Of a stretch of DNA of 64,000 bases, positions 1,447-60,071 are shown piece after piece. The number at the start of each line of letters is the position of its first letter. The stretch's first letter is position 1. The notes below the pieces were generated by a model. That model did not search any database and had not been told where the DNA came from. It saw only the letters and a list, made by a program, of their open reading frames with translations. Position numbers and translations under genes: made by a program. Source of the DNA: Parcubacteria group bacterium Athens0714_16 (GTDB lineage: Bacteria > Patescibacteriota > Minisyncoccia > Phycocordibacterales > 21-14-all-36-13); assembly GCA_007376805.1 (NCBI GenBank), contig VMGX01000001.1, positions 70,461 to 134,460 on the forward strand. Reading direction: 5' to 3'.

Positions 1447-4083
1447 TTAGATAGTAACAATATTTACAAGTTTCCCTTTGATATATATAGTTTTTTTGAT
1501 TTTTTTGTCCCCCACCCATTTTAGAACCACTTCCGATGAAAGAGCTTTTTCTTTTATTTCATCTTCACCAAGACCGTTATCCACAGTAAACTTATCTCTA
1601 ATTTTGCCATCCACTTGAACAACAACAATAAAGTTTTCGTTTTCTTTTATTTCGTCATATTTAGGCCATTCACTTTTTTGGATAGATTCTTTTTCCCCCA
1701 TCTCTGCCCACAATTCTTCTGTCACGTGTGGTGCAAATGGAGAAAAAATTTTCAAAAACTTTTTATAATTTTCTTTACTAATTCCATTCTTATCATAAAC
1801 GAAGTTTACAAACATCATCATGGAACTTACAGCAGTATTAAATTTTATGTTTTCAATGTCTTCTCCAACTTTTTTTATTGTTTTATTTAAATAATTATTT
1901 ACACCCTCGTTTTCATTATCAACTATTTTTTCCGAAAGCCCACAAACTCTTTCAATAAATCTAACCATTCCAACAACTCCATTTGTGCTCCAACTTGTTT
2001 CCTGGTCGTAGGGGCCAACAAACATTTCATAAAGTCGAAATGCATCTACTCCAAATTTTTTAACAACATCTTCTGGATTAATAACATTACCTCTGGACTT
2101 TGACATTTTTTCTCCACCTTCACCAAGAATCATTCCATGGGAGGTTCTTCTCACGTATGGCTCGTCAGTCGGAACCAAGCCGATATCAAACAAAAATTTA
2201 TGCCAAAAACGAGAGTACAAAAGGTGCAACGTTGTATGTTCCATTCCCCCGTTATACCAATCTACAGGAGTCCAATATTTTAATTTATCCATGCTTGCAA
2301 ACTCTTTGTCATTTTTGTTATCTGCATATCTCAAATAATACCAAGATGAACCAGCCCAGTTTGGCATTGTATCTGTTTCTCTTTTTGCAGGACCTCCGCA
2401 TTTTGGACATTTTACATTTACCCATTCTTTTATATCAGCCAATGGTGATTCTCCGTTATCATTCGGCTCATATTTTTTTACATCAGGAAGTTCAAGTGGA
2501 AGTTTTTCATCAACAACCCATCCTGGATTTAAAATTTCACCTTCATTAAATTTTTGATTTTGGATTTCTGATTTTGAATTTGGAACTTCTTTGGAATTTG
2601 GTGCTTGTAATTTGGAATTTTCCATTGATTTTTTGCACAATTCACAAAAAATCAATGGTATTGGTTCTCCCCAATACCTTTGTCTTGAAAAAATCCAATC
2701 GCGTAATTTATAAGTTGTTTTGAGTTCCCCACCAACAAATTTTGTAATTTCTTTAATCGCTTCTTCACTTTTCATTCCATCAAATTTTCCTGAATTCCTT
2801 AATACACCAAACTCTGTCCATATCTCATTACCAGCAAGAATCTTTTTAGTTTTTTCATCAATCGCAGTTGTAGTATCAAAATTATGAAATCCTGTCGGGA
2901 AAATTCCTCCAACCACAGGACTATTTGGATATGGATTGATTACGTTTATTATTTCAATTTTATCTGCGTTTATCTGCGATTTTTTATCTGCGTTCATCTG
3001 CGATGCGAATGCAAAGTCGCGTTCGTCATGTGCCGGAACCGCCATTATTGCTCCGGTCCCATAACCAGCTAAAACATAATCAGCTATAAAAACTGGAATT
3101 TCTTTTTTGTTTGCAGGATTTATTGCTTTAATCCCTTTTAATTCAATACCTGTTTTTTGTTTGCCTTCAGCCGTTCTGTCTATATCTTTCTTTTTTGCTG
3201 TTTCAGAAATATATTTTTCAACTTCTTTAAAATTTGAGATTTGAGATTTGAGTTTTGAGATTATTTCATGTTCTGGCGCCAAAACTAAATATGTAGCGCC
3301 AAACAAAGTGTCTGGTCGAGTTGTAAATACATTTACTTCATTTTTATTTTCAGATTTGAGATTTGAGATTTTAGATTTTATTTCAAAAGCAATCTCTGCT
3401 CCCTCACTTTTCCCTATCCAATTTCTCTGTTGAATTTTTATTTTTTCCAAAAATTCTGTTTTGTCCAAATCATCATATAATCTTTCAGCATATTTTGTTA
3501 TGGCTAACATCCATTGTTCCTTTTCTCTTTTTTCAACTGGCCCACCACATCTTTCACAAACACCATTAACAACTTCTTCATTAGCTAAACCAATTTTACA
3601 ACTCAAACACCAATTTATTGGCATCTTTTTTTTATAAGCGAGACCGTGTTTAAAAAATTGTAAAAATATCCACTGAGTCCATTTGTAATATTCAGGACTT
3701 GAAGTATTAATTTCACGAGACCAATCAAATGAAAACCCCAGCGATTTTAATTGTTTTCTAAAATTGTCTGTATTTTTTTTAGTTATTATTTTTGGATTTA
3801 CACCTGTTTTAATCGCATAGTTTTCCGTCGGTAAACCAAAAGCGTCCCATCCAATTGGATAAAGCACATTAAATCCTTCGGCTCTTTTTTTTCTGGCAAC
3901 AACGTCCATGGCCGTATAACCTCGTGCATGACCAACATGAAGTCCCTCTCCAGATGCATATGGAAATTCTATTAAACAATAATATTTGGGTTTTTTCTTA
4001 TCTTCCGTTGTTTTGTTTATTTCATCTTTCTCCCAAATCTTTTGCCATTTGCTTTCTATTTTTGAATGATTGTATTTCCCCAT
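1447..4083 (-). CDS. leuS: Leucine--tRNA ligase
   Basis: 878-aa ORF. HVGHARGYTAMDVVARKKRAEGFNVLYPIGWDAFGLP (HIGH region) and KMSKSRGN motifs. Contains low-complexity and NADK-repeat insertions. Confidence 0.95.
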   Translation of the reverse strand: MGKYNHSKIESKWQKIWEKDEINKTTEDKKKPKYYCLIEFPYASGEGLHVGHARGYTAMDVVARKKRAEGFNVLYPIGWDAFGLPTENYAIKTGVNPKIITKKNTDNFRKQLKSLGFSFDWSREINTSSPEYYKWTQWIFLQFFKHGLAYKKKMPINWCLSCKIGLANEEVVNGVCERCGGPVEKREKEQWMLAITKYAERLYDDLDKTEFLEKIKIQQRNWIGKSEGAEIAFEIKSKISNLKSENKNEVNVFTTRPDTLFGATYLVLAPEHEIISKLKSQISNFKEVEKYISETAKKKDIDRTAEGKQKTGIELKGIKAINPANKKEIPVFIADYVLAGYGTGAIMAVPAHDERDFAFASQMNADKKSQINADKIEIINVINPYPNSPVVGGIFPTGFHNFDTTTAIDEKTKKILAGNEIWTEFGVLRNSGKFDGMKSEEAIKEITKFVGGELKTTYKLRDWIFSRQRYWGEPIPLIFCELCKKSMENSKLQAPNSKEVPNSKSEIQNQKFNEGEILNPGWVVDEKLPLELPDVKKYEPNDNGESPLADIKEWVNVKCPKCGGPAKRETDTMPNWAGSSWYYLRYADNKNDKEFASMDKLKYWTPVDWYNGGMEHTTLHLLYSRFWHKFLFDIGLVPTDEPYVRRTSHGMILGEGGEKMSKSRGNVINPEDVVKKFGVDAFRLYEMFVGPYDQETSWSTNGVVGMVRFIERVCGLSEKIVDNENEGVNNYLNKTIKKVGEDIENIKFNTAVSSMMMFVNFVYDKNGISKENYKKFLKIFSPFAPHVTEELWAEMGEKESIQKSEWPKYDEIKENENFIVVVQVDGKIRDKFTVDNGLGEDEIKEKALSSEVVLKWVGDKKIKKTIYIKGKLVNIVTI
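2951..3000. repeat. Tandem ATCTGCG iteron array (4 units, ~11-nt period) inside leuS coding sequence, translated in-frame as SQMNADKKSQINADK
   Basis: ttatctgcgtttatctgcgattttttatctgcgttcatctgcg read directly. The same iteron occurs at 6762-6866, 28384-28478, 44917-44958 and 58606-58612. Confidence 0.7.
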
Positions 4084-4090
4084 TTTATTT

Positions 4091-4145
4091 ACCCTATTAA
4101 ATAATTCGCCCGAAAGTGAATTCCTGTAAACAGGATTTAACGGGG
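4091..4145. repeat. Degenerate MITE/REP-like element with inverted termini ACCCTATTAAAT / ATTTAACGGGGT
   Basis: Inverted termini related to the ACCCTGTTAAAT TIR family. Inner palindrome cctgtaaacagg. Immediately upstream of the leuS start. Confidence 0.45.
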
Positions 4146-4343
4146 TTAATTATACAATAAATTTCTTGTTTAAAAAATGACTAAAAATTAATTGTTGTAA
4201 AAAAAATATTTTTTGATACTATGTGGATTCGGTTTTATGGTTTTTGGATTTAAAACCGAAAGAACGTTAAAAAAGGACATGGTGATGAACAAAAGGGCTA
4301 GTACAAGGAACTAGTATCCTGGCAATCGCCAACATTTTTTGTA

Positions 4344-4569: not shown

Positions 4570-5685
4570 TTAATTCAAAAGTGGTTTTGGATATGGTGGA
4601 TATAAATCTTTATCTATTGTTCTTTCAAAACAAGTTTTTCCTTCTTTATGATCCCATGATTCATTTACTCCACCTGCAGGATAAGGACGAGACGCTACAG
4701 ATACATCCTTTCCATAATAATAATCCATCATCGGCATAACTCCTCCACCATTAGAATATTCTACCCAGCCCTTAGGAATTGGTAACGAAAATGTCGCACA
4801 AAGTTCAAATTTAAGTTTATCTTTTACAAAATATTCGTAAGTATTTCCTTTTTCAAACTCAGGATCAACTGGTAATGAATATCCCGATATTGGATTAGCA
4901 AGATCAGAAAGTTTTTCGGGTAATTTTTCTTTTGATTGCCAATAATATATAACTTGATACTGAATACTTTGAAGATCACCTATTCGTCTATCGTCCATTC
5001 TAAGTTTTCTTTGATTTGAGGGGCTTCCCATAATCATAAAACTGAAAATAACCGCTCCGATAACAAGAACTGCCCCAACTATTGCAAAAATTAAACTCGT
5101 TTTAGAAGAAGAATTTTTTTCTCTAAGTAAGAAGATGTAATATGCTCCAACTAAACCGGCAACTACAAGTGCAATTATTACTTTCAAAATAAATCGCGTA
5201 GTTATTTCACCAGAAATAAAATATCTTATGAGAGTAACCAAATCCACCATGATAACTACCGTGGAAAGAAATAAAATAATATACGTCACCCATTTTTTTA
5301 TAACTTCATCTGTGTGACCTATAATTCCTTTTGCATATTTTCTCCAAAAATAAGAGACAACAATAAAAACTGGGAAAAATATAATAAGTGTTGCGAGTGC
5401 TATACGAATGCTTTCATATTCATATAGAGAATATCCGTACTGATAACTTGCATTTAAAACATCCGGAAAATTTTTGTTGAGTGTTTCAAAAACTAGATTA
5501 AGAAATGATGTAACAGAAGTTATTAATGTTATTAATAATCCTAAGCACAAAAAGAAAAAACCTACATTTAATTTTGGTTTGTTTGATTCCATAATAGGTA
5601 TATTGTAGCATTTTTCTAAAAATCTAAAAAAACAATAAAACAAAGCAAAATAAGGATTTTTACAAATAGAAATAAAGAAGTTCAA
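4570..5685 (-). CDS. Polytopic membrane protein with C-terminal extracytoplasmic domain (hypothetical)
   Basis: Multiple hydrophobic helices followed by a ~160-aa soluble C-terminal region. The true start may be the internal Met (MESNKPK) at ~5592. Confidence 0.5.
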   Translation of the reverse strand: MNFFISICKNPYFALFYCFFRFLEKCYNIPIMESNKPKLNVGFFFLCLGLLITLITSVTSFLNLVFETLNKNFPDVLNASYQYGYSLYEYESIRIALATLIIFFPVFIVVSYFWRKYAKGIIGHTDEVIKKWVTYIILFLSTVVIMVDLVTLIRYFISGEITTRFILKVIIALVVAGLVGAYYIFLLREKNSSSKTSLIFAIVGAVLVIGAVIFSFMIMGSPSNQRKLRMDDRRIGDLQSIQYQVIYYWQSKEKLPEKLSDLANPISGYSLPVDPEFEKGNTYEYFVKDKLKFELCATFSLPIPKGWVEYSNGGGVMPMMDYYYGKDVSVASRPYPAGGVNESWDHKEGKTCFERTIDKDLYPPYPKPLLN

Positions 5686-6761: not shown

Positions 6762-6866
6762 TATCTGCGTTTACCCTGTTAAATAAATTTGCTCAAGCAA
6801 ATTTTCTACTTTGTAGAATTTAACAGGGTTAATCTGCGGTTTTGTTATCTGCATTCATCTGCGGAA
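6762..6866. mobile_element. Miniature inverted-repeat element (57 bp, TIR ACCCTGTTAAAT) flanked on both sides by ATCTGCG iterons
   Basis: ttatctgcgtttACCCTGTTAAATaaatttgctcaagcaaattttctactttgtagaATTTAACAGGGTtaatctgcggttttgttatctgcattcatctgcgg. The TIRs are identical to those bracketing the GIY-YIG ORF at 58628-58915. Confidence 0.6.
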
Positions 6867-6867
6867 T

Positions 6868-7965
6868 TCAAATCTTGAATTCAACGACATCCCCGTCTTT
6901 AACAACATATTCCTTCCCTTCCGTACGAACAAGCCCTTTTGCTTTTGCATTTGCATGTGAACCGGCGTCAACTAAATCTTTCCAATTTATAATTTCTGCA
7001 CGAATAAATTTATCTTTGAAATCAGTGTGAATTGCCATCCCCGCCTCTGGCGCACTTGAATTTCTTTTTATAGTCCACGCCCTCGTCTCATCCTCGCCTG
7101 TCGTCAAAAATGTTATCAAGTCCAAAGCCGAGTACCCTTTTTTAATCAACTCATTTGTTCCGTCATCAAAAACATTTAATTCCTTTCTAAATTCTTTTGC
7201 GTCCTCAACACTCAAGTCCTTCAACTCGTTTTCAATTCCGGCATCAACAATAACAAACTCTGAGCCAGAATCTTTAAAAAACTTCATTAACTTTTCATAT
7301 CTCTCATCTTTTATCTCACACACATCCTTACAACCACTTTTTTTATTTAAAACATAAATTATTTTTTTTGTAGTCAAAAGGTTTAATGTCTTCAAAACTT
7401 CCCTTTCTTCTTTTTCTAAATCAAGTGTTGACGCGAGTTTCCCCTCGTCTAAAACTGCATATACTTTTTTAAAAACCCCTTCTTCAAAAATTGCTTTCTT
7501 ATCTCCCTTCTTAATATCCTTCGCGAGAGTATTAATTCTTTTTGAAACGACTTGAAAATCAGACATTATTAATTCCAAATTTATTATTTCAATATCTTTG
7601 AGCGGGTCTATTTCATTATGAACATGTGTTATATTTTTATCTTCAAATATTCTCACAACCTCCGCAATTGCATCGGTTTCTCTTATGTTCGCCAAAAATT
7701 GATTTCCAAGCCCCTCGCCTTCCGACGCTCCTTTCACAAGCCCCGCAATATCAACAAATTCCACAACCGCTGGAATTTTCTTTTTTGAATTTGAAAATTT
7801 ATTTAATATCTCAACTCGTTCATCGGGCACAGGAACAATCCCCACGGATGGGTCAATTGTGCAGAAAGGATAATTCTCCGCCGGAACGGACTTTTTCGTC
7901 AGCGCATTAAATAGCGTGGACTTCCCCACGTTTGGTAGCCCTACGATTCCTATTGAAATATTCAT
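6868..7965 (-). CDS. ychF: Ribosome-binding ATPase YchF (Obg-family GTPase with TGS domain)
   Basis: N-terminal IGIVGLPNVGKSTLFNALT P-loop, NYPFCTIDP, C-terminal TGS (VRTEGKEYVVKDGDVVEFKI). Confidence 0.9.
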   Translation of the reverse strand: MNISIGIVGLPNVGKSTLFNALTKKSVPAENYPFCTIDPSVGIVPVPDERVEILNKFSNSKKKIPAVVEFVDIAGLVKGASEGEGLGNQFLANIRETDAIAEVVRIFEDKNITHVHNEIDPLKDIEIINLELIMSDFQVVSKRINTLAKDIKKGDKKAIFEEGVFKKVYAVLDEGKLASTLDLEKEEREVLKTLNLLTTKKIIYVLNKKSGCKDVCEIKDERYEKLMKFFKDSGSEFVIVDAGIENELKDLSVEDAKEFRKELNVFDDGTNELIKKGYSALDLITFLTTGEDETRAWTIKRNSSAPEAGMAIHTDFKDKFIRAEIINWKDLVDAGSHANAKAKGLVRTEGKEYVVKDGDVVEFKI

Positions 7966-7988: not shown

Positions 7989-8516
7989 CTAAATCGCGAA
8001 ATCAAAAACTTTTACAGGAATTCTTTTTTTATTAGCTTTCTCAATAGTATCTTCTGTGCCAGCACCTTTACTTTCTTTTGTCTTTATATGAAATGCTATC
8101 AACTCATCAGAAAAATCTACAATCTTAGAATTACGTTCATAATACATTGTCTTTTTTGTTTCTTCTGTAAAATTTGTGTCAAAATTTTCCACTAATGCTT
8201 CCGAATTAATTTTTTTTAATTGTGTTAATTGTTTTATAAGATTTTCAGCTTGTTCTTGTGTGATAGTTCCTAAACGAGCATGTTTTCTATAGTGTTCCGA
8301 ATATTTTTCAAGTGTGGTCGGAAGAAAAATTTTTATTTTGTTTGCCTTAGGATCAAATCTGAATGCTTCATCAAGAGCAATGTAATCAACACCTAGCGCT
8401 CCACCAGAAACAATTCCATCTCCACGCTGAATAATTTCTCGCACAACTTTGCGAACTTTGTTTTCAATTTCTTGATTAGTTTTACGCCAACCACCACTAA
8501 TTCCAACCCATTTCAT
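7989..8516 (-). CDS. Rossmann-like SLOG/DprA-like domain protein (hypothetical)
   Basis: GDGIVSGGALGVDYIALDEA resembles the SLOG/DprA nucleotide-binding motif. Weak. Confidence 0.3.
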   Translation of the reverse strand: MKWVGISGGWRKTNQEIENKVRKVVREIIQRGDGIVSGGALGVDYIALDEAFRFDPKANKIKIFLPTTLEKYSEHYRKHARLGTITQEQAENLIKQLTQLKKINSEALVENFDTNFTEETKKTMYYERNSKIVDFSDELIAFHIKTKESKGAGTEDTIEKANKKRIPVKVFDFAI

Positions 8517-10619: not shown

Positions 10620-11867
10620 TTATTCTAATTTGATTTTATACCACTTAAATAATTTTTCTAAGTCAAAAATAATACCAACCTTTTCAAGATGTTTTTTTCG
10701 ATTCTCAAATAAATTTTTAATAAAATCCTTTCTTTCTGTATCAACCGCGAGATGAATTTTTCTATGACAATTTGGACAAAGACAAATAATATTTTCTGTA
10801 ATATCTATACTAACATCAAATCTTTTTCTTTCAGAAAATGGTATCAAATGGTGCGCTTCAACATAATTTTTATTATTTGATTTTGAATTAAATGTCATGT
10901 GAGCATTATTATATTCGCATAAATAATTACTATTCTTTTTTGAAAATTCTTTCATGTTTTGACTAGAAAACAATATTTCATCGTCTGTATCTAAATCAAA
11001 ATTTTCTTTTTTCCATTCTTCAATAATCTTTCTTTTTTCTTCAAAAGAAAACCCTTCTTTTTGTAATTTTATTGATAAATTGCTTATTTTTAAGTTTCTG
11101 TTACTTATATTTTTTTCTGATATTTCAATATTTTTGTATTGTTCATCTACGAAGAAAAAATTTGATCTTAGTTTCCCTTTATTATTTTCAATTTCAGATT
11201 TATAATAATCTATTTTAAATGGCGTAAATAAACCAAATTTACTAATATAATAAAAAAGTGGCAATCTAAATTGGTCATTTTTCCTAAAAGATTTTTTTTG
11301 GACTAATCTTGGATTGTAGTTAAACACAGCTCCTATAATATCATTGTATTTGGTTAATTTTCTTTTTATCAACATAGGAGTTTTTTCTATTATATCCATA
11401 GAAATAAATCTATGATTAAAATCAAGTGAACCCCGAGCATCAATGGCTCCTGTAAAAAACATTGTTTTATATGTATCGTCTATATCTATAAGCCATTTTT
11501 CTATAATCCCGTATATATAAACTGACAGATCAACTGTGTTTGGTATTAACAAATCATTTTCTATCACAATAGATACTCCGTTTTTTATTCTTTGACTTTT
11601 ATCTTGTAAACTTGACCTGCTTATATCTTTATTTAATATGACCTCATAGTCATCACCCAAAAAATTTTCTAATTTTTTCTTATGAAGATAATAATATTCA
11701 TTGATGTTTTTCTCTAGTTTATTTTTACTTCTTTTTCCTTTTATGTATGCACTGTATGCTAAAATTTTATTATCATTCAATATAATAAAATGAGCATATA
11801 TCATTCCAAGAACAAAAGATGTTTGTATATTAGTATTTTCTATTTTTAATAACTCACTGAATTTCAT
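10620..11867 (-). CDS. HNH nuclease-domain protein (415 aa, HNH at C-terminus; candidate restriction endonuclease or Septu PtuB-like effector)
   Basis: C-terminal AHHLIPFSERKRF...IICLCPNCHRKIH HNH motif. Large N-terminal domain without recognisable motifs. 15-bp gap to the upstream MTase. Confidence 0.7.
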   Translation of the reverse strand: MKFSELLKIENTNIQTSFVLGMIYAHFIILNDNKILAYSAYIKGKRSKNKLEKNINEYYYLHKKKLENFLGDDYEVILNKDISRSSLQDKSQRIKNGVSIVIENDLLIPNTVDLSVYIYGIIEKWLIDIDDTYKTMFFTGAIDARGSLDFNHRFISMDIIEKTPMLIKRKLTKYNDIIGAVFNYNPRLVQKKSFRKNDQFRLPLFYYISKFGLFTPFKIDYYKSEIENNKGKLRSNFFFVDEQYKNIEISEKNISNRNLKISNLSIKLQKEGFSFEEKRKIIEEWKKENFDLDTDDEILFSSQNMKEFSKKNSNYLCEYNNAHMTFNSKSNNKNYVEAHHLIPFSERKRFDVSIDITENIICLCPNCHRKIHLAVDTERKDFIKNLFENRKKHLEKVGIIFDLEKLFKWYKIKLE

Positions 11868-27841: not shown

Positions 27842-28672
27842 CTAAAATTGATTTACCAATCTCAAATCTCCAGAATAAAGCATCCTTATATCTGGAATTT
27901 CGTATTTAAGCATAACCAATCTGTCTATACCAACCCCAAATGCGAAACCCTGCCACTCTTGTGGATTAATCCCACAATTTTCTAAAACCTTTGGATGAAC
28001 CATGCCCGCACCCATTATTTCTATCCACCCGGTTCCCTTACATATTGAACAACTTGAATTTATTTTTTTATCTTTTGCACATTTAAAACATGTCATATCA
28101 ACTTCAAGTCCCGGTTCAACGAATGGGAAATAACTTGGTCGAAAACGAATATCAATTTTTGCTTCAAAAAATTTTTCTAAAAATTCCTTCAAAACACCTC
28201 TAAGATTAGCGAGTGTAGTATTTGGAGTAATCATAAGTCCTTCCAATTGATAAAACTGTGCTTCATGTGTTGCATCCGTTGCTTCATATCTAAAACATTT
28301 TCCGGGAGCAATAATTTTTATAGGAGGTTTATTTTTCTCCATATATCTAATCTGAACAGGAGAAGTGTGTGTTCTTAACAACGCAGATTCTCGCAGATTT
28401 TCACGCAGATTTACGCCAATGTTTTTATCTGCATTCATCTGCGTTTTTTTATCTGCGTTTATCTGCGTCTTAATCCAAAAGGTATCCCACATATCTCGTG
28501 CTGGATGATTTGCAGGAATATTTAGTGCATCAAAATTATGATATTCATCTTCCATGTGTGGCCCATCCACTATTTCAAATCCCAAATCATCAAATATTTG
28601 AGCTATTTTCATCATTGCCAATGACAATGGATGATAATGTCCTTTTTCTTTGTTTTTGTCTTGTGGCTCCAT
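27842..28672 (-). CDS. pheS: Phenylalanine--tRNA ligase alpha subunit (short form lacking N-terminal coiled coil)
   Basis: HPARDMWDTFWI, FRPSYFPFVEPGLEVDM, GAGMVHPKVLENCGI motifs. Contains the NADK-repeat insertion. Confidence 0.85.
   Translation of the reverse strand: MEPQDKNKEKGHYHPLSLAMMKIAQIFDDLGFEIVDGPHMEDEYHNFDALNIPANHPARDMWDTFWIKTQINADKKTQMNADKNIGVNLRENLRESALLRTHTSPVQIRYMEKNKPPIKIIAPGKCFRYEATDATHEAQFYQLEGLMITPNTTLANLRGVLKEFLEKFFEAKIDIRFRPSYFPFVEPGLEVDMTCFKCAKDKKINSSCSICKGTGWIEIMGAGMVHPKVLENCGINPQEWQGFAFGVGIDRLVMLKYEIPDIRMLYSGDLRLVNQF
28384..28478. repeat. ATCTGCG iteron array in inverted arrangement (3x CGCAGAT then 4x ATCTGCG) inside pheS, translated in-frame (INADKKTQMNADKNIGVNLRENLRES)
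   Basis: Direct reading of cgcagattctcgcagattttcacgcagatttacgccaatgtttttatctgcattcatctgcgtttttttatctgcgtttatctgcg. Confidence 0.7.
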
Positions 28673-29267: not shown

Positions 29268-29296
29268 TTGACCATACCCCCCTGGGGGTATATACT
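29268..29296 (+). promoter_or_regulatory. Sigma70-type promoter TTGACC-17-TATACT whose spacer is a CsoR-type operator palindrome ATACCCCCCTGGGGGTAT
   Basis: TTGACC 29268-29273, palindrome 29274-29291, TATACT 29291-29296, ATG of csoR at 29306 (near-leaderless). GC-rich ATACCC...GGGTAT dyad matches known CsoR operators. Confidence 0.7.
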
Positions 29297-29305
29297 TGTT
29301 TCCAT

Positions 29306-29572
29306 ATGAAAAACACAAATAAACAAAAAATTATTAAACGACTTAAAATTCTTGAAGGACAAATTCGTGGGCTTCAAGAAATGGTAATGAAAGATGTATA
29401 CTGTATAGATGTAATAACTCAAACATCAGCAGTAAAACAAGGTCTTTCAAATGTGGAGGATCTACTATTAGAAAATCATTTAGGAAGTTGTATTTTGAAT
29501 CAGTTAAAGTCGGGACAAACAAACAAGGCAAAGAATGAAATTCTAAAAGTTTATAAACTAAAAAGAAAATAA
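29306..29572 (+). CDS. csoR: Copper-sensing transcriptional repressor CsoR/RcnR family
   Basis: 88 aa. LKILEGQIRGLQEMVMKDVYCIDVITQTSAVKQGL with the conserved Cys and H-x-x-x-C region. Confidence 0.7.
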   Translation: MKNTNKQKIIKRLKILEGQIRGLQEMVMKDVYCIDVITQTSAVKQGLSNVEDLLLENHLGSCILNQLKSGQTNKAKNEILKVYKLKRK

Positions 29573-29573
29573 C

Positions 29574-31889
29574 ATGCATAACGAAACATATAATATAAAA
29601 GGGATGCACTGTGCCTCATGTGCTAGTACTATCGAAAAAACTTTCAAAAAAGTTGACGGTGTAAACTCCGTTGAAGTTAATTACGGAACAGAAAAGGCAA
29701 AAATATCCTTTGACCCACTAAAAACAAATCCCACTACCCTTTCCAAACATATCGAACCATTTGGATATTCATTGATTATACCAATGGCAAATACCTCGAC
29801 TTCATTTAGTGCCGGTGAAATGGGAATATCAGAAAATGAACATGCAAAACATTTGGGTCTAAATCAATCAAAAAACGAAAAACTTGCTGAATTGAAAGAT
29901 ATGAAAAATAAAGTTATATCTGTTATCCCTCTCACTATTTTTAGTAGCTTCGTATTAGCGTGGGAAACTCTTTCTCAATTTAATATTGTTCCTACTATCC
30001 CGTATTTTTGGGAAGAATTTTTTCATCATTTACTCCCAATAATGGCTACCTATACTTTGTTCGTTGTTGGAAAACCATATCTTTTAGGATTTTATCGTTT
30101 TCTTCGTTATGGCAAAGCCAATATGGATACTCTGATAGGAATCGGAACATCCGTTGCTTTTATTTTTAGTTTTATTGTTTCTGCTTTTGAAGAAAGTTTA
30201 AGATCCTTTATAAATGTAGAGCAGAGTTATTACGACGTGACAATTATTGTTATTGCCTTTATTACCCTCGGTAAATATCTTGAAGCTCGTTCAAAATTAA
30301 AAACAGGTGACGCCATAGAAAAATTATTAAATCTGCAAGCAAAAACTGCACTTGTTATTCGTGAAGGAAAAGAAGTTGAAATATCAATAGACCAAGTCCT
30401 ACACGGAGATTTGATAATTGTAAAACCAGGAAATTCAATACCTGTTGACGGTATTATTACAGATGGCACTTCCTTTATAGATGAAGCAATGATCACTGGT
30501 GAACCAATGCCCGTTTCAAAAAAAATTGGAGATGCTGTCGTGGCTGGAACAATAAACACAAATGGTTCGTTTACTTTTAGAACAACAAAAGTTGGTTCAG
30601 AAACTTTGCTTGCTAAAATAATAAAAATGGTTGAAGAAGCACAAGGAAGTAAGGCACCTATACAGGCATTAGCAGATAAAATTTCTGGCGTTTTTGTTCC
30701 AATTGTTTTAGTTTTGTCTTTTGTTTCTTTGGGACTTTGGCTTGTTGTTGGTTCAAGCTACCTCGGTTTTTCGCAAGCACTTTCTTTTGGCCTAGTTTCT
30801 TTCGTGGGCATTCTTGTTATAGCTTGCCCTTGTGCACTTGGTCTCGCAACACCAACGGCAATTATTGTTGGTGTAGGAAAGGGTGCGAGAGAAGGAATAC
30901 TTGTTAAAGACGCCGGAACACTTGAAAAACTTCACAAAGTAAATGTAATTGTTGTTGATAAAACTGGAACACTTACACGCGGGAAACCAGAACTTGTTTC
31001 AATAAAAAATCTTTCCGACAAAAGTGATGATGAACTAATATCAATTATTGCTTCTCTTGATAGTCAGTCATCTCATCCTGTCGCCCACGCAACTGTTTCC
31101 TATGCACGAGAAAAAAATATTCCATTTCAACCAGTAACTTCTTTTGAATCAATCAAAGGAAAAGGATCAAGAGGAATAATTAATGGCAATGAATATTATG
31201 TTGGCAGTCCAAAATTTTTGGCAGATTTTAATATTTCCTTTGACATTTCTTCTTTAGAAAAAGAAACATTAGAAGGTAAAACACCTGTAATTTTAATTAA
31301 AGAAAAAAATATTCTAGGCGTAGTAATGGTTGCAGATGCAATAAAACCAGAAGCTGTTGAATCAATAAAAAATCTTCATAAACTTGGTATAAAAATAATC
31401 ATGGTTACTGGAGATAATAAAAATACTGCTGATTATATTGCAAAGCAAATTGGTATTGATGAGGTTGTTGCAGAAGTAATGCCAGAAGATAAATTAAATA
31501 AAATAAAAGAATTACAGTCACAAGGAAAAATCGTTGCGATGGCTGGTGATGGAGTGAATGATGCCCCCGCCCTTGCTCAAGCTGATGTGGGTATAGCAAT
31601 GGCAACTGGGACTGACGTGGCAATAGAAACTGCTGGCATCACACTTTTGCATGGTGATATTTCAAAACTAGTAAAAGCTATTCGTTTATCCAAATTAACA
31701 ATGCGTGGGATTAAACAAAATCTTTTCTGGGCGTTTGTTTACAATATTGTAGGGATACCACTTGCAGGAGGTTTGTTTTATCCAATTTTTGGTTGGATGT
31801 TAAGTCCAGTTTTTGCCGGATTCGCAATGGCAATGTCCAGCGTATCGGTTGTCGGTAATTCACTTAGATTAAAAGTAAAAAAATTATAA
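29574..31889 (+). CDS. copA: Copper-translocating P1B-type ATPase
   Basis: N-terminal HMA MHCASCASTIE, CPC (ACPCALGLATP), DKTGTLT, TGEP, GDGVNDAPAL, MxxSS. Confidence 0.9.
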   Translation: MHNETYNIKGMHCASCASTIEKTFKKVDGVNSVEVNYGTEKAKISFDPLKTNPTTLSKHIEPFGYSLIIPMANTSTSFSAGEMGISENEHAKHLGLNQSKNEKLAELKDMKNKVISVIPLTIFSSFVLAWETLSQFNIVPTIPYFWEEFFHHLLPIMATYTLFVVGKPYLLGFYRFLRYGKANMDTLIGIGTSVAFIFSFIVSAFEESLRSFINVEQSYYDVTIIVIAFITLGKYLEARSKLKTGDAIEKLLNLQAKTALVIREGKEVEISIDQVLHGDLIIVKPGNSIPVDGIITDGTSFIDEAMITGEPMPVSKKIGDAVVAGTINTNGSFTFRTTKVGSETLLAKIIKMVEEAQGSKAPIQALADKISGVFVPIVLVLSFVSLGLWLVVGSSYLGFSQALSFGLVSFVGILVIACPCALGLATPTAIIVGVGKGAREGILVKDAGTLEKLHKVNVIVVDKTGTLTRGKPELVSIKNLSDKSDDELISIIASLDSQSSHPVAHATVSYAREKNIPFQPVTSFESIKGKGSRGIINGNEYYVGSPKFLADFNISFDISSLEKETLEGKTPVILIKEKNILGVVMVADAIKPEAVESIKNLHKLGIKIIMVTGDNKNTADYIAKQIGIDEVVAEVMPEDKLNKIKELQSQGKIVAMAGDGVNDAPALAQADVGIAMATGTDVAIETAGITLLHGDISKLVKAIRLSKLTMRGIKQNLFWAFVYNIVGIPLAGGLFYPIFGWMLSPVFAGFAMAMSSVSVVGNSLRLKVKKL

Positions 31890-42493: not shown

Positions 42494-42717
42494 GGCTGTT
42501 CCTCCTTATTTTTGTTATTAAAATATTTAAAAGAACTTGAATTTATATCAAATTCTCTGTTTTAAATGATATAACAAATCATCAAAAAAGTCAAATTTTT
42601 TCCAAAAGACTCCCCCTCGAAGAAAAAACTTATTTAAAATATGTGCACAACTACGGAGGCAAAAAACAAAGGAGGCGTTGAATAAATTCAACGCCTCAAA
42701 CAAAATTAATTACTTGT

Positions 42718-42783
42718 CCCGTTAAATGCGGAGCATATTTAACTGGGATGGATGAAAAAGCTCATTCAGAGCTTTTCATTCAT
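42718..42783. repeat. Mini palindromic element CCCGTTAAAT-9nt-ATTTAACTGGG plus terminator module GAAAAGCTCATTCAGAGCTTTTC overlapping the stop of 42780..44138
   Basis: Near-identical copy at 47166-47225. Related terminator hairpin at 44199-44220. Confidence 0.55.
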
Positions 42784-44846: not shown

Positions 44847-44916
44847 AATAATTAACAGGTGTAAGTATACCGAAAATAACCAAGAAAGCAAGAAAACAAA
44901 GAAGCAAAAAACATCT

Positions 44917-44958
44917 GCGTCTATCTGCGATTTTTTATCTGCCTGAATCTGCGTTCAA
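44917..44958. repeat. ATCTGCG iteron array (4 units) forming the 3' end of fba and the fba-rplY spacer
   Basis: catctgcgtctatctgcgattttttatctgcctgaatctgcg. The last 7 codons of fba (FLNADSGR) are encoded by the iterons. Confidence 0.65.
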
Positions 44959-46935: not shown

Positions 46936-47211
46936 ATATTAAAAAGAAAGTTTAAAAACACTTGACTTTCTTTTTAATATATGATATTATTATACCAGAT
47001 ACTTAGATTACAGCACCAGCCAACTTGCGGAGTGAGAAATACTCACACCCACCAAAAAAACGGCTGTGATCTAAAAAAACAAATTCCCACATAAAAGCCT
47101 CGTTGCAAACTTCCAATCATCTGCAACGAGGCTATCTTTTTTTAAACAAAAAAAATATTACTTGTCCCGTTAAATACAAAGTATATTTAATTGGGATGGA
47201 TCAAAAATCTC

Positions 47212-50058: not shown

Positions 50059-51216
50059 TCACTTGGTGGCTCCGAAACTAAGTGACTCTATTTCTTTTAT
50101 TCTACGAACATGTCTTTCTTCTTTAGAAAACGGTGTGTCCAACCAAAGTTTCGCTACCGTTTTTGCTTCTTCTTCTGTAATAAATCTTGCGCCTAGAGAT
50201 AAAATATTTGCATCGTTGTGTTCACGAGATAATTTTACAACTTCAGTATCTCCACCATAATAAACCGCCGTCCTAACATTTTTAAACCTATCCGATATCA
50301 TAGCTTCCCCCTGTCCAGAACCACCCAAAATTATTCCTTTTGAATTGTCTGGATTATTTGAAATTTCTTTCGCAACGAAAGAAACAAAATCTGTGTAGTC
50401 ATCAGCTTCATCGTATTTATAGGCACCCTTATCAATAACATCATAGCCAAGATTTTTAAGAAATTTTACTAATTTACCCTTCAACTCAAACCCGGCATGG
50501 TCAGTTCCTATAAATATTTTTGTTTTTGTTGTTGTTTTTGATTTGGTTTTTATTCGAGTATCACTTTCTCCATTACCGATAAAATTTTTATACCAAGGCA
50601 TTACTTTTATGTGTTTATGAACATATCTACGATATAGCCAAAATAAAACAACGGCAGATATGATTATAAAAGCCAGAGTATCAAAAAAGTATCTAGAACT
50701 TTTTATCGCTCCGCCAAAATAATAACCAACAGCAATAATTGCACTAACCCACACTAACTGCCCAAAAAAGACACCGGTCATAGCTTTTTTATAACTTGCT
50801 CCGAGAGCCCCGCCTGCTATCAAAACAGCTTCAGGAATACCTGGAATCGGAATTAATTTTGTTACAAGAAGTGTTTTTACTATATGTTCCTTAAATAATG
50901 GTGTCCATTCATTTTCTCCCAACTCATCCTCTGTCTTTATCTTTTTAATAACCTTTCTATAGAAACGAAATTTTTCAAGAAAAGAAAACCCCGATTTGGC
51001 CAGAAAAAAAATTATTGAATCTGTTAAAAGTCTCATTGAAACACAGATAGCAAGAACAATGAAAGGATTAAATACCCCCAGTGACGAAAGTATCCCAGCA
51101 AAAAAAGCGATATATGTGGTATCAACAAGAGATACTATTATGAGAATTGGATAACCATAACTAATAAGCCATTCAAAAACATCTTTTCCTAAAATTACTT
51201 CTTGGCCTGTTATCAT
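50059..51216 (-). CDS. Fusion protein: N-terminal DedA/SNARE-associated membrane domain + C-terminal ribose-5-phosphate isomerase B (RpiB/LacAB)
   Basis: Membrane part LIPIPGIPEAVLIAGGALGASYKKAMTGVFFGQL (DedA-like). Soluble part KIFIGTDHAGFELKGKLVKFLKNLGYDVIDKG...ILGGSGQGEAMISDRF...ILSLGARF (RpiB). Confidence 0.7.
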   Translation of the reverse strand: MITGQEVILGKDVFEWLISYGYPILIIVSLVDTTYIAFFAGILSSLGVFNPFIVLAICVSMRLLTDSIIFFLAKSGFSFLEKFRFYRKVIKKIKTEDELGENEWTPLFKEHIVKTLLVTKLIPIPGIPEAVLIAGGALGASYKKAMTGVFFGQLVWVSAIIAVGYYFGGAIKSSRYFFDTLAFIIISAVVLFWLYRRYVHKHIKVMPWYKNFIGNGESDTRIKTKSKTTTKTKIFIGTDHAGFELKGKLVKFLKNLGYDVIDKGAYKYDEADDYTDFVSFVAKEISNNPDNSKGIILGGSGQGEAMISDRFKNVRTAVYYGGDTEVVKLSREHNDANILSLGARFITEEEAKTVAKLWLDTPFSKEERHVRRIKEIESLSFGATK

Positions 51217-51344
51217 TTACCCTGTTAAACAAAATTTGAACATTTTCAAATTTTAATTTTAAATTATTTTTTTAAAAACATAGACTTTTATCTTTCTAAT
51301 TTTTGTAGAGCATACACCACACATATTACAAACCCTATTTAAAA

Positions 51345-58140: not shown

Positions 58141-58566
58141 TTACTTTATTGTTACATCAAATACCTTTTGGTCTACTGGGGCAACATCTATCTCCCATTC
58201 ACGTAGATAATAGAAATTAATTTTTGTATCCCCTGTTTTCAAGGTCTTGAATTGAAATTTTTCTGTTCCACCCGCTCCTACGATTTGTTCATCTCCATTT
58301 TGTTCTTGTTGTACAAAATTTTTGTTTACAAATTCTATATAATTTTCATCAAAATCTGAAACCCACGAATAACCAGTCGTTGGATTTGATTCAAGAAGAA
58401 TTTCAAAATTTTCTCCAATTTTAACTTCTATATCATTTACAACATTTTCAATTGTATTATTGATTGTTTCTTCTTCTAAACCCTTTTTGTCAGAATAAAA
58501 AAACATCGAACCAAAAATAATTATCGCCAACGCAAAATATATATATATTGTTTTTTTGTTTTCCAT
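58141..58566 (-). CDS. Chagasin-family (I42) protease inhibitor, membrane-anchored
   Basis: N-terminal TM. LLESNPTTGYSWV ... VGAGGTEKFQFKTLKTGDTKINFYYLREWE matches the chagasin signature. Confidence 0.6.
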   Translation of the reverse strand: MENKKTIYIYFALAIIIFGSMFFYSDKKGLEEETINNTIENVVNDIEVKIGENFEILLESNPTTGYSWVSDFDENYIEFVNKNFVQQEQNGDEQIVGAGGTEKFQFKTLKTGDTKINFYYLREWEIDVAPVDQKVFDVTIK

Positions 58567-58626
58567 ATTGAAACGTAGATTACCGCAAATAAAAACGCAA
58601 ATCCACGCAGATTAAATAAAATTAAT

Positions 58627-58881
58627 TCACCCTGTTAAATAAGACTTGAGACGATTTTTAATAAACATTTTTCCCAAGTGTGTTTTCAAGTATTTTTCTC
58701 TATGTGTAGCATCGTCCCGACCTAGACATGCTTCATAGTATATCAATTTTATAGGTATTCTGTTCTTTGTTGATTCTACGAGTCCTTTTTTATGCTTCTC
58801 AAGTCTTAATTTTAAATCTTTTGTATACCCCGTATAAAACTTTTTATCTTTACTCGATTTTAATACATAAACATAATACAT
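58627..58881 (-). CDS. GIY-YIG nuclease family protein (YhbQ/UPF0213-like, 84 aa)
   Basis: YYVYVLKSSKDKKFYTGYTKDLKLRLEKHKKG...IKLIYYEACLGRDDATHREKYLK: GIY...YIG(YTG) beta-hairpin, conserved Arg, Glu. Confidence 0.7.
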   Translation of the reverse strand: MYYVYVLKSSKDKKFYTGYTKDLKLRLEKHKKGLVESTKNRIPIKLIYYEACLGRDDATHREKYLKTHLGKMFIKNRLKSYLTG

Positions 58882-58915
58882 ATCACCTTTGATTAAAAAT
58901 TATTTAACAGGGTAA
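58628..58915. mobile_element. 284-bp element: 12-14-bp terminal inverted repeats ACCCTGTTAAATAA bracketing a GIY-YIG nuclease ORF
   Basis: Left attcACCCTGTTAAATAAgac (58626-58645), right aattATTTAACAGGGTaaag (58899-58918). The ORF fills the interior. CGCAGAT iteron sits immediately outside the left end. Confidence 0.6.
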
Positions 58916-60071
58916 AGTAATAAAGACCCATCGCAATTAAAATAACACCTTCTACTAATGTCGCCCATTTTGTAAATTTAGGTGATGTTAACCATATATC
59001 CATTTTATATATTGCAATAAGAAATACGATTATTTCATCTATTAAATAAAATACAATAAATATACCTATATAAAACAACGTGCCAAAATTTGAGATTCCT
59101 CTTTCAGCTAAAATACCCGCAAAAGAAACAGGGACTGCTGCTGAACAAGGAAATTCAATTAAAGTAACCAAACCAGAAAATACAACCACACCGAGAAGTA
59201 TCTGCAAAACCTTGTTTGTCTCACCAAACATATTTTTAATTTTTGTTGCCGCTGATGAAATAATTTTTGAATCAGACGATTCACAAACCAAGCCCTGTTT
59301 TCTAATTCTTATAAATTCTTTTATAAAATAAATCCCGCCAGCCAATCCAACAAACCCAACCACCAATTCAATTGTTTGGATGTAAGAACTAACTAAAACA
59401 AAGAGACGGTGCCAGAGAATAATCAATAAACCATAAACAAGGGCCGTAACAACAAGATATGCTCCTCCATATAAAATTATTTTCTTTCTCGAACGAAGTT
59501 TGAGAACAAGCCCAAGTATTAAAATAAGTGCACCAAGCGAACACACGTTCACACCGTCAAGTGTCCCAAGAACGACCGAGAGTGCCACAAGAGAATAATT
59601 TTTTACATTAATTTTCCCTAAAATTGGTAAATTTACAGACGAATCCTTAGCTCCGTCTTCGGTTTTAATAACGCCCGTAGTTTTTAATTGATTTTGAATT
59701 GATGTCTCTATATCTTTTCCTATTTTATCTTCTGAATCAAAACCGGCAAAAAAATCTTTCCCTACAAATGTAAGTGGAACAACACCAAAATATTCCCCCT
59801 TTTTAATTTCTTCCAATTTTTTAAACATCGGACTTATATTTGCCTCAATATCAACTGCGTATCTGTTTATTATAAGTCCTTCATATTTCCCTTCTATTTT
59901 GTCTAAAAATGCATTTTCCGCAATACAGTGTGGACATGTTTCACTATAATAGAAATCCAAATTTAATTCTGATTTTATTTCTTGTGCATGAACACGACCA
60001 AAAGAAATAAAAAATAAACCCAGAATTAAGCTGAGGGCAAAAAAAACAAAAAATTTATCCTTGAATTTCAT
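58893..60071 (-). CDS. Thioredoxin-like domain fused to CcdA/DsbD-like transmembrane domain
   Basis: Signal peptide, SETCPHCIAENAF (CxxC thioredoxin motif), membrane domain with VCSLGAL and FPCSAAVP conserved Cys. Confidence 0.6.
   Translation of the reverse strand: MKFKDKFFVFFALSLILGLFFISFGRVHAQEIKSELNLDFYYSETCPHCIAENAFLDKIEGKYEGLIINRYAVDIEANISPMFKKLEEIKKGEYFGVVPLTFVGKDFFAGFDSEDKIGKDIETSIQNQLKTTGVIKTEDGAKDSSVNLPILGKINVKNYSLVALSVVLGTLDGVNVCSLGALILILGLVLKLRSRKKIILYGGAYLVVTALVYGLLIILWHRLFVLVSSYIQTIELVVGFVGLAGGIYFIKEFIRIRKQGLVCESSDSKIISSAATKIKNMFGETNKVLQILLGVVVFSGLVTLIEFPCSAAVPVSFAGILAERGISNFGTLFYIGIFIVFYLIDEIIVFLIAIYKMDIWLTSPKFTKWATLVEGVILIAMGLYYFTLLNNF

Follow-up and report, generated by a model that had tools for sequence, protein, structure and literature searches.

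A short mobile hairpin element in a heptad array of a Parcubacteria genome belongs to a widespread repeat family that can enclose a GIY-YIG nuclease gene

The stretch analysed here, hereafter the window, comprises 64,000 nucleotides (64 kb) of contig VMGX01000001.1 of Parcubacteria group bacterium Athens0714_16, and our subject is a 57-bp hairpin element at positions 6773–6829 (no strand assigned) together with the repeats that surround it. The element lies in intergenic DNA between the stop codon of ychF (6868–7965, minus strand) and the start of an open reading frame (ORF) of 82 amino acids, where it interrupts a plus-strand array of four heptads (6763–6863) that has the same two neighbours and directly follows the ychF stop codon. 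Read on the plus strand, the order is ATCTGCG (6763–6769), TTT, the element, TA (6830–6831), ATCTGCG (6832–6838), GTTTTGTT, ATCTGCA (6847–6853), TTC and ATCTGCG (6857–6863), with the element between the first two heptads. The distance between these two heptads (6763–6838) is 69, compared with 10 in the other arrays. The outer arms, ACCCTGTTAAAT (6773–6784) and ATTTAACAGGGT (6818–6829), are perfect inverted repeats, complementary at 12 of 12 positions (P1), and they enclose two hairpins, AAATTTGCT-CA-AGCAAATTT (P2, 6785–6804) and TCTAC-TTT-GTAGA (P3, 6805–6817). The predicted fold is a three-way junction with zero unpaired junction bases, and the 63-nt stretch holding the element has a folding z of −6.4 to −7.7, computed as RNA or DNA. 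An earlier note on this DNA had described a 57-bp inverted-repeat element with ATCTGCG on both sides and an internal hairpin. The layout is borne out by the sequence, with two amendments: the third heptad reads ATCTGCA, and the internal hairpin is P2, the second hairpin at 6805–6817 having been overlooked, so that the structure is a three-way junction. Both components are enriched in the window: the expected counts are 1.4 for the arm core CCYRTTAAAT and 2.2 for exact ATCTGCG, whereas the observed ones are 11 and 21, the count of 21 being reached in 0 of 100 shuffles. An independent ENA assembly (L001; numbers with the prefix L denote comparison loci) carries the identical element sequence, which excludes an assembly artefact.

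The window holds a second short element of 56 bp (4091–4146, no strand), inserted upstream of leuS, with an extended −10 box, TGTATAAT, on one side and the start codon of the gene on the other. It has one mismatch per arm, and its P2 and P3 sequences are unrelated to those of the 57-bp element, although the three-way fold is alike. The comparison of orthologous intergenic regions that the earlier note had called for became possible with two syntenic relatives, L156 and L136, found by a metagenome scan with LeuRS and sharing the gene order ychF, DUF5671, leuS and sigma. L156, whose ychF and leuS are 93% and 76% identical to those of the window, has the orthologous four-heptad array directly after the ychF stop codon (8397–8470), uninterrupted at the site in question. 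Counted from ychF, the third and fourth heptads are joined as heptad3-GTT-heptad4 (spacing 10) in L156, compared with heptad3-TA-[57 bp]-AAA-heptad4 in the window; L156 instead has an unrelated hairpin between its heptads 1 and 2. The site upstream of leuS reads TGTATAATTA|CAAGAATG in L156, and the 56-bp element of the window stands at the bar. The net gains are 59 bp at the ychF site, where the TA dinucleotide arrived with the element, and 58 bp at the leuS site, and both equal the unit plus 2. L136 has neither array nor element after ychF. The two empty sites, together with the array in L156, thus indicate that the 57-bp element is mobile and is a recent insertion into a pre-existing heptad array, and that the array is older and lies outside the mobile unit. 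Of the two possibilities offered in the earlier note, that the heptads belong to the mobile unit is contradicted at the ychF locus by the element-free array of L156.

Related elements were sought with a paired-arm scan of one genome per species, allowing an interior of 25–55 nt, which returned at least 120 loci; the statistics for short copies given below (n = 128) concern elements from other genomes. Hosts among the matches listed include Patescibacteria of many classes, Omnitrophota, WOR-3, Desulfobacterota, Gammaproteobacteria, Bacteroidota and others, and several other genomes have more than one locus among those matches. The hairpin family is therefore not lineage-specific but is spread over many bacterial phyla. 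Among viral contigs, 0 exact matches were seen to the array of heptads, to the short element or to the gene-sized one described below, so that phage carriage was not found at that stringency. Every member has the 12-bp terminal inverted repeat ACCCYGTTAAAT ... ATTTAACRGGGT, with TTY before and RAA after it across the family. Between the repeats lie a short loop, two small GC-rich hairpins, an AT-rich segment of 40 nt (in WOR-3) or an 84-aa GIY-YIG gene.

The fold of the short copies is conserved while their sequence is not. Two inner hairpins are present in 92 of the 128 copies, which have 88 different interiors, and the interiors fold at −0.33 kcal/nt compared with −0.15 kcal/nt for shuffles (p = 6e-20). 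When 17 copies of 58 nt are aligned without gaps, 98% of cells pair, a percentage that is partly given by construction, the copies having been preselected for folding in the three-way architecture. The informative parts of this alignment are the control with slid partners and the compensatory variation, which occurs in 13 of 26 pairs: 7/9 in P2 and 5/5 in P3, with P1 invariant at 10 of its 12 pairs. The loops of the 128 copies are dominated by C-AAA-G and C-GAA-G triloops and their complements, and some loops are UUCG-like. Very stable mini-hairpins of DNA typically have such C-G-closed triloops. The orientation of the elements relative to neighbouring genes is random (26 versus 25), and which inner hairpin comes first does not depend on the small flank asymmetry, TTT...GAA versus TTC...AAA.

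Short copies also occur inside genes. Thirteen of the 128 (~10%) lie in frame and free of stop codons within long ORFs of candidate-phyla genomes (L005, L006, L012, L024, L053, L115 and others), among them those for GatA, GatB, KsgA, ribosomal protein L18 (rplR), HolB and RecG. They encode (H/N)PVK...FNRV or TLLN...LTG and add ~20 residues to the protein. The unit length was 1 mod 3 in all 13 in-frame copies, compared with 49% of the other copies (p about 9e-5), indicating that the inserted length is the unit plus 2, as at the two empty sites. At L075, the element-coded LTG precedes FTLIELL, a pilin-type leader cleavage motif.

A conserved fold with compensatory changes, the position of the two window copies in the 3′ untranslated region (UTR) of ychF and the 5′ UTR of leuS, and the UUCG-like loops could also suggest a structured RNA, either a stabiliser or terminator at the 3′ end of ychF or a regulator in the 5′ UTR of leuS. 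However, the family has no preferred orientation relative to genes, and the in-frame copies with their strict mod-3 rule are translated, neither spliced nor terminating. No U-tract follows the 57-bp element, and a terminator scan there found none. At the gathering threshold of Rfam 15, the window yielded two tRNAs only and no covariance-model match to the element, and in four loci searched against Rfam with E values allowed up to 1, the sole hits were chance ones to microRNA hairpins, below threshold. Presence or absence of the element furthermore differs between close relatives, and the C-G-closed triloops are of the DNA type. Random orientation, in-frame copies and triloop types place the action of the element at the DNA rather than the RNA level, and we consider an RNA function quite unlikely. 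SsnA, one of the GIY-YIG nucleases discussed below, does not bind RNA (PMC11893778).

The heptad arrays form a repeat of their own. A canonical array consists of four ATCTGCG units with spacings of 10, 12–15 and 10 and does not fold by itself. The 64 kb contain at least six scattered arrays, three of which overlap coding sequence. The array in the leuS ORF (2962–3002, plus strand) is in frame and encodes SQMNADKKSQINADK. An inverted pair of arrays in the pheS ORF (28382–28467, no strand), also in frame, gives a 27-aa insert between DTFW and LLRTHTSPVQ. Pseudomonas PheS has 1 residue in place of these 27 (alignment to PDB 4p71) although the flanking motifs are universally conserved, and the pair folds as a long imperfect hairpin (z = −5.6). 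A further array (44913–44953, plus strand) overlaps fba, the class II aldolase gene, at its 3′ end and supplies the last ~9 codons and the stop codon. A degenerate minus-strand array, CGTAGAT, CGCAAAT, CGCAAAT and CGCAGAT (58574–58612; spacing 10, 12, 10), lies just upstream of the start of the gene at 58141–58566. The leuS insert is common to L156 and is absent from L136 and from six other LeuRS sequences, and L156 and L194–L197 carry array-coded inserts at other LeuRS positions. The arrays themselves are thus gained and lost, and essential genes tolerate them. Two further features of LeuRS were observed. In L156, an insertion of ~190 aa just before the editing domain (10700–11260) is bounded by inverted arrays and resembles a read-through composite element. 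In the window, LeuRS residues ~505–540 (roughly 2460–2570) form a low-complexity insert, NSKLQAPNSKEVPNSKSEIQNQKFNEGEILNPGW, in the zinc-finger region, which is common to L156, partly present in L137 and absent from others, and which may be a third kind of translated repeat.

Elements and arrays are also associated outside the window. An exact heptad lies within the 15-nt flank at fixed offsets in 12 of the 128 elements (18 flanks), against a background of 0.0013 per flank, and the register is that of the window, ATCTGCG-TTT-[element]-NA-ATCTGCG or its complement CGCAGAT-TN-[element]-RAA-CGCAGAT. The heptad-flanked foreign copies come from WOR-3-type genomes and have a different, non-hairpin interior. 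In the window, two of the four element sites lie within 20 bp of an array (P below about 0.01 by rough arithmetic, even with both confined to intergenic DNA). Other small hairpins likewise interrupt heptads in L156 and in WOR-3 loci, suggesting that the arrays are general landing sites for palindromic insertions. The other possibility raised in the earlier note, a preference of the elements for heptad arrays as target sites, is thus supported both by the array without element in L156 and by the fixed offsets in other genomes. Treating the heptads as cargo is further contradicted by the element-free arrays at leuS, pheS and fba and by the heptad-free surroundings of most elements elsewhere. The arrays are a separate, older repeat and a recurrent landing site, the target of the element and not its cargo. 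At several WOR-3 loci (L044 2570–2660, L050 6500–6600, L090 7670–7700, L087 6190–6300), a longer conserved motif near gene starts, AAATCTTGWTAATCTGCGTCC (AATCTTGWTAATCTGCGTCC), includes the heptad, and other GC-rich hairpins are inserted within individual heptads.

Two other explanations of the heptads were weighed. In the first, the element itself would generate them as a long target duplication, the arrays being footprints of insertion and excision within one system. The WOR-3 copies are indeed flanked by direct repeats of 9–10 bp (ACGCAGATT), and elements everywhere have flanking trinucleotides similar to the array spacers TTT and TTC (GAA and AAA when read from the other strand). However, copies outside arrays show no duplication of any length, a complete array stands without the element in L156, and some genomes and genes have arrays but no element close by, which makes this the least probable of the explanations considered. 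In the second, the heptads would be host sites for a winged-helix regulator or an iteron-binding initiator and the palindrome an operator, so that their co-occurrence would reflect regulatory design. This would agree with heptad spacings of 10 and 12–15 bp, near the helical repeat, and with the longer motif of the WOR-3 loci near gene starts. It is very unlikely, however, given that the arrays in leuS and pheS are translated, that close relatives differ in which arrays they have, that the half-sites of the element stand 33 bp apart around variable hairpins, unlike those of an operator, and that the same stem lies beside unrelated genes in many phyla. Nor does the window show an origin-like change of skew at 6.8 kb, or heptads clustered at an origin beside rep or dnaA as plasmid or origin iterons would be. 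The word iteron, used for the heptads in the earlier note, is therefore inappropriate for arrays that are dispersed, lie inside coding sequences and have no replication-origin context.

The same terminal repeats enclose a gene. A full-length unit at 58629–58913 (minus strand) consists of the repeats around an ORF of 84 aa (58627–58881) encoding a GIY-YIG protein. The downstream repeat encodes the end of the protein, YLTG and the stop codon (TTA ACA GGG TGA = LTG*), and the upstream repeat supplies the final codons (TLLNNF*) of the ORF at 58893–60071. The earlier note had taken the 57-bp element to be related to this unit, and rightly so, since both carry terminal repeats of 12–15 bp, the short element being non-coding. 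It had also placed a heptad, at 58606, against the repeat of the unit; this heptad is the last unit of the degenerate array at 58574–58612 and is 16 bp away. A truncated element at 51219–51254 (plus strand), with one arm, ACCCTGTTAAAC, and one hairpin and without a partner arm, abuts the start codon of the gene at 50059–51216. The window thus has four elements: two short ones that are complete, one that bears the gene and one that is truncated.

The link between gene and repeats holds elsewhere. Homologues of the 84-aa protein fall into more than 5,800 clusters, many of them ~80% identical, and carry PF01541 as their only domain; the C-terminus is ...SYL(T/M/I)G in all 15 of the 15 homologues fetched, with the conserved end KNRLKSYLTG. 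The best PDB matches are GIY-YIG proteins of the UPF0213 group, NCBIfam holds no specific family for the protein, and a plasmid collection gave eight weak hits only. In all five distinct contigs inspected (the window, L122, L123, L124 and L126), the gene is enclosed by the same repeats. The four contigs beyond the window are a 0.8-Mb metagenome contig, one named Candidatus Udaeobacter at NCBI, a metagenome-assembled genome (MAG) from a genome collection and a member of the set of diversity-generating retroelement (DGR) loci. The ends in these four are TTTACCCTGTTAAAT ... ATTTAACAGGGTGAA, with TTTACCCTGTTAAATAATTT... upstream and ...TCTTATTTAACAGGGTGAA at the gene end. The gene-flanking arms are half-sites of one stem and not whole hairpins; L122 has in addition a complete mini-hairpin just upstream. 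This mini-hairpin (L122 2936–2975) is a minimal form of two arms and an 8-nt loop, AATTTTAA, joined to the GIY-YIG unit through GA, and it suggests that the loop of a basic hairpin is the place where inner hairpins or the gene are nested. An origin of the miniature copies by internal deletion of the gene-bearing unit was considered and rejected, their interiors having no sequence in common with the subterminal parts of the GIY-YIG unit beyond the arm-adjacent AATTT. Nested insertion of small hairpins into the loop fits the miniature copies better than simple deletion.

The gene-bearing unit is itself found as an insertion. At L126–L135 (for example, L126 28–655), it splits the bAvd accessory gene of a DGR into ORFs of 71 aa and 47 aa, and comparison with the intact bAvd of L110, which is 77% identical, gives an insertion of the 280-nt unit plus 3 nt. 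The split-bAvd arrangement recurs in contigs from many samples, some of which have a second GIY-YIG gene just upstream.

[quoted passage not shown] However, a target-site duplication was not seen: around the 111 copies that lie outside heptad arrays, direct repeats of 2–9 bp are in no excess at any offset. No transposase was seen between these repeats in the five distinct contigs, in each of which the GIY-YIG gene is the sole enclosed gene, and the coding sequence of that gene ends in the downstream repeat, a tighter tie than would be expected of a passenger. Covariation of the inner hairpins is furthermore not required by a model in which a transposase recognises the ends. The label MITE in its strict sense is therefore not supported, and an origin of this kind is unlikely.

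The closest known systems are the Ssn proteins, GIY-YIG nucleases of small size and with a single domain, whose target is a hairpin repeat in the genome (NTS/SRM); they bind this repeat only when it is single-stranded DNA (ssDNA) and cleave next to it (Chenal et al., 2025, Nat Commun, PMC11893778). Ssn genes are typically flanked by their own SRM/NTS repeat, and an architecture like that of insertion sequences and an analogy to REP/RAYT were noted (PMC11893778). The window protein resembles them in being a very small single-domain GIY-YIG protein, its 84 aa lying within a range of ~80–150 aa without an extra DNA-binding domain, and in having its gene bracketed, here by the two arms of one stem, by a hairpin-forming repeat that is also scattered genome-wide and rarely adjoins the gene. 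It is 32% identical (pairwise E = 6e-12) to the product of an Azospirillum GIY-YIG gene flanked by four hairpins that match the SRM regex (L216). The two differ in that the short copies of the window family carry nested inner hairpins and form a three-way junction, and in that ~10% of them lie in frame inside genes, compared with 2% of NTS inside genes in Neisseria meningitidis (PMC11893778). The hosts of the family moreover centre on Patescibacteria, Omnitrophota and WOR-3, which are unmentioned in that paper. The SRM consensus HGTCWYN(0-2)YYVSBRHN(0-5)WNVSBRGN(0-2)RNCYNB gave 0 hits in the 64-kb window; in L216 and in some loci of the candidate phyla radiation (CPR), it recovered the sites that were expected. 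In one CPR locus, L022, canonical SRMs (TGTCATTCCCGCGAACGCGGGAATCCAG) at 3699–3771 and 5180–5249 lie beside a gene for a canonical Ssn-like GIY-YIG protein of 98 aa (5319–5615), and the locus also contains one element of the window family; the coexistence of both hairpins there indicates two separate systems. Canonical SRM hairpins (TGTCATTCCCGCGAACGCGGGAATCCAG) were also observed in the candidate-phyla and other MAG loci L055, L066, L071 and L079. To judge from these sequences, the window family is best filed as a related but separate enzyme–hairpin pairing of Ssn type, its nuclease probably being a distant Ssn relative.

Considering these results, we think it probable that the 57-bp element is a non-autonomous copy of a mobile DNA hairpin family served by an Ssn-like GIY-YIG nuclease, and that it landed in an older heptad array. 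The following course of events may be envisaged. On a single strand, the terminal repeats would pair and bring the two element ends together. The 84-aa nuclease may recognise the folded, sequence-invariant P1 stem on ssDNA, as SsnA does with its own repeat, and this interaction could spread and maintain the repeats. Insertion would add the unit plus 2 nt, without target duplication, preferably at T-rich junctions (TTT before, RAA after), and at the ychF locus the element entered the older four-heptad array between a spacer TTT and the next heptad.

Several points weigh against this explanation. GIY-YIG nucleases are not known to form a covalent intermediate, so that they could not carry out strand transfer alone. 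The great majority of the short copies, 125 of 128, have no GIY-YIG gene within 8 kb. The junction rule is inexact, the unit plus 2 found at the two orthologous sites and by the mod-3 rule giving way to the unit plus 3 nt at bAvd. Similarity to a bona fide SRM-flanked gene is modest (32%), the best PDB hits being UPF0213 proteins, and the repeat of the element, to which no window hit of the SRM consensus corresponds, is unlike that consensus. Whole hairpins flank an Ssn gene, often as inverted pairs (L216), whereas the gene of the window family lies inside a single hairpin whose downstream arm is coding. The preselection of the 17 aligned copies, stated above, belongs here as well.

Three other systems share single features with the family, and each fails a defining test. 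REP/REPIN repeats with their RAYT enzymes, including CGTC- and GTAG-tagged REPs (Di Nocera et al., 2013, PMC3733652), are likewise short palindromic multicopy repeats with a single-copy nuclease gene flanked by its own repeats, presumed recognition of ssDNA hairpins and some copies in genes. The enzyme of the window family is, however, a GIY-YIG protein and not an HUH tyrosine transposase, its elements have no GTAG or CGTC tag but TTY and RAA flanks, and its stem is conserved across phyla, whereas REP stems are species-specific. Rickettsia palindromic elements reportedly lie in frame in conserved genes and are translated as extra peptides. In-frame translated insertion holds for both the hairpin element and the heptad arrays, but the sequences and hosts differ; Rickettsia palindromic elements are 100–150 bp long, and their families have no nuclease gene nested between the arms. 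IS200/IS605 insertion sequences, which move by ‘peel and paste’, produce no target duplication, need folded ssDNA ends and insert beside a short specific sequence. Their ends are two different subterminal hairpins, acted on by an HUH transposase with a covalent intermediate, whereas the ends of the window family form one stem together and the enzyme is a GIY-YIG protein.

A full-text literature search for the repeat sequence returned primer coincidences only, and literature searches on CPR palindromic repeats and on GIY-YIG proteins with DGRs gave no description of this hairpin family. We raise, tentatively and with more doubt than confidence, the possibility of a previously unrecognised class of prokaryotic mobile element, in which a GIY-YIG ssDNA nuclease would be the driver instead of a transposase and the ends, brought together by folding on ssDNA, would be cut and copied at the invariant 12-bp stem. 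Such a class would combine duplication-free insertion and heptad landing pads with three-way-junction miniatures that lie in frame in essential genes across several candidate phyla.

The pairing of Ssn nucleases with hairpin repeats was described in 2025, mainly in Proteobacteria, and the family described here would extend the principle to the streamlined bacteria of the candidate phyla, with a different motif and with the gene inside its own hairpin. With the empty sites, mobility is supported directly by comparison of genomes, a kind of evidence absent from the Ssn work. Core genes of very small genomes, such as those for aminoacyl-tRNA synthetases, amidotransferase subunits and a ribosomal protein, accommodate two kinds of selfish repeat, and these repeats matter for annotation, protein-family alignments and phylogenomics of the lineages concerned. 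The invariant 12-bp stem and the highly conserved 84-aa enzyme together are a candidate for a new ssDNA-cutting specificity.

Two resemblances of the arms to recombination sites were examined and set aside. GTTAAAT fits the GTTRRRY core of integron attC sites, but inspection shows core and inverse core to stand in the opposite order and a cassette context to be missing. The arms have TGTTAAAT in common with the XerD arm of dif, but they stand 33 bp apart and not 6 bp as in dif, and this resemblance was judged a coincidence.

A second, simpler hairpin family was observed in the window at 42717–42750 and 47165–47197. Both copies consist of GTCCCGTTAAAT, a 9-nt loop and ATTTAAYTGGGAT, share the flanks TTACTTG...GGATGGAT and lie directly downstream of minus-strand genes, and their stem resembles the arm of the main family; more than 200 other loci yielded only two similar sites. 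Finally, a perfect palindrome, ATACCCCCCTGGGGGTAT, at 29274–29291 lies just upstream of an ORF at 29307–29573, which is followed by an ORF of 771 aa at 29574–31889, and it is a candidate CsoR-type operator before a putative metal-efflux ATPase operon.

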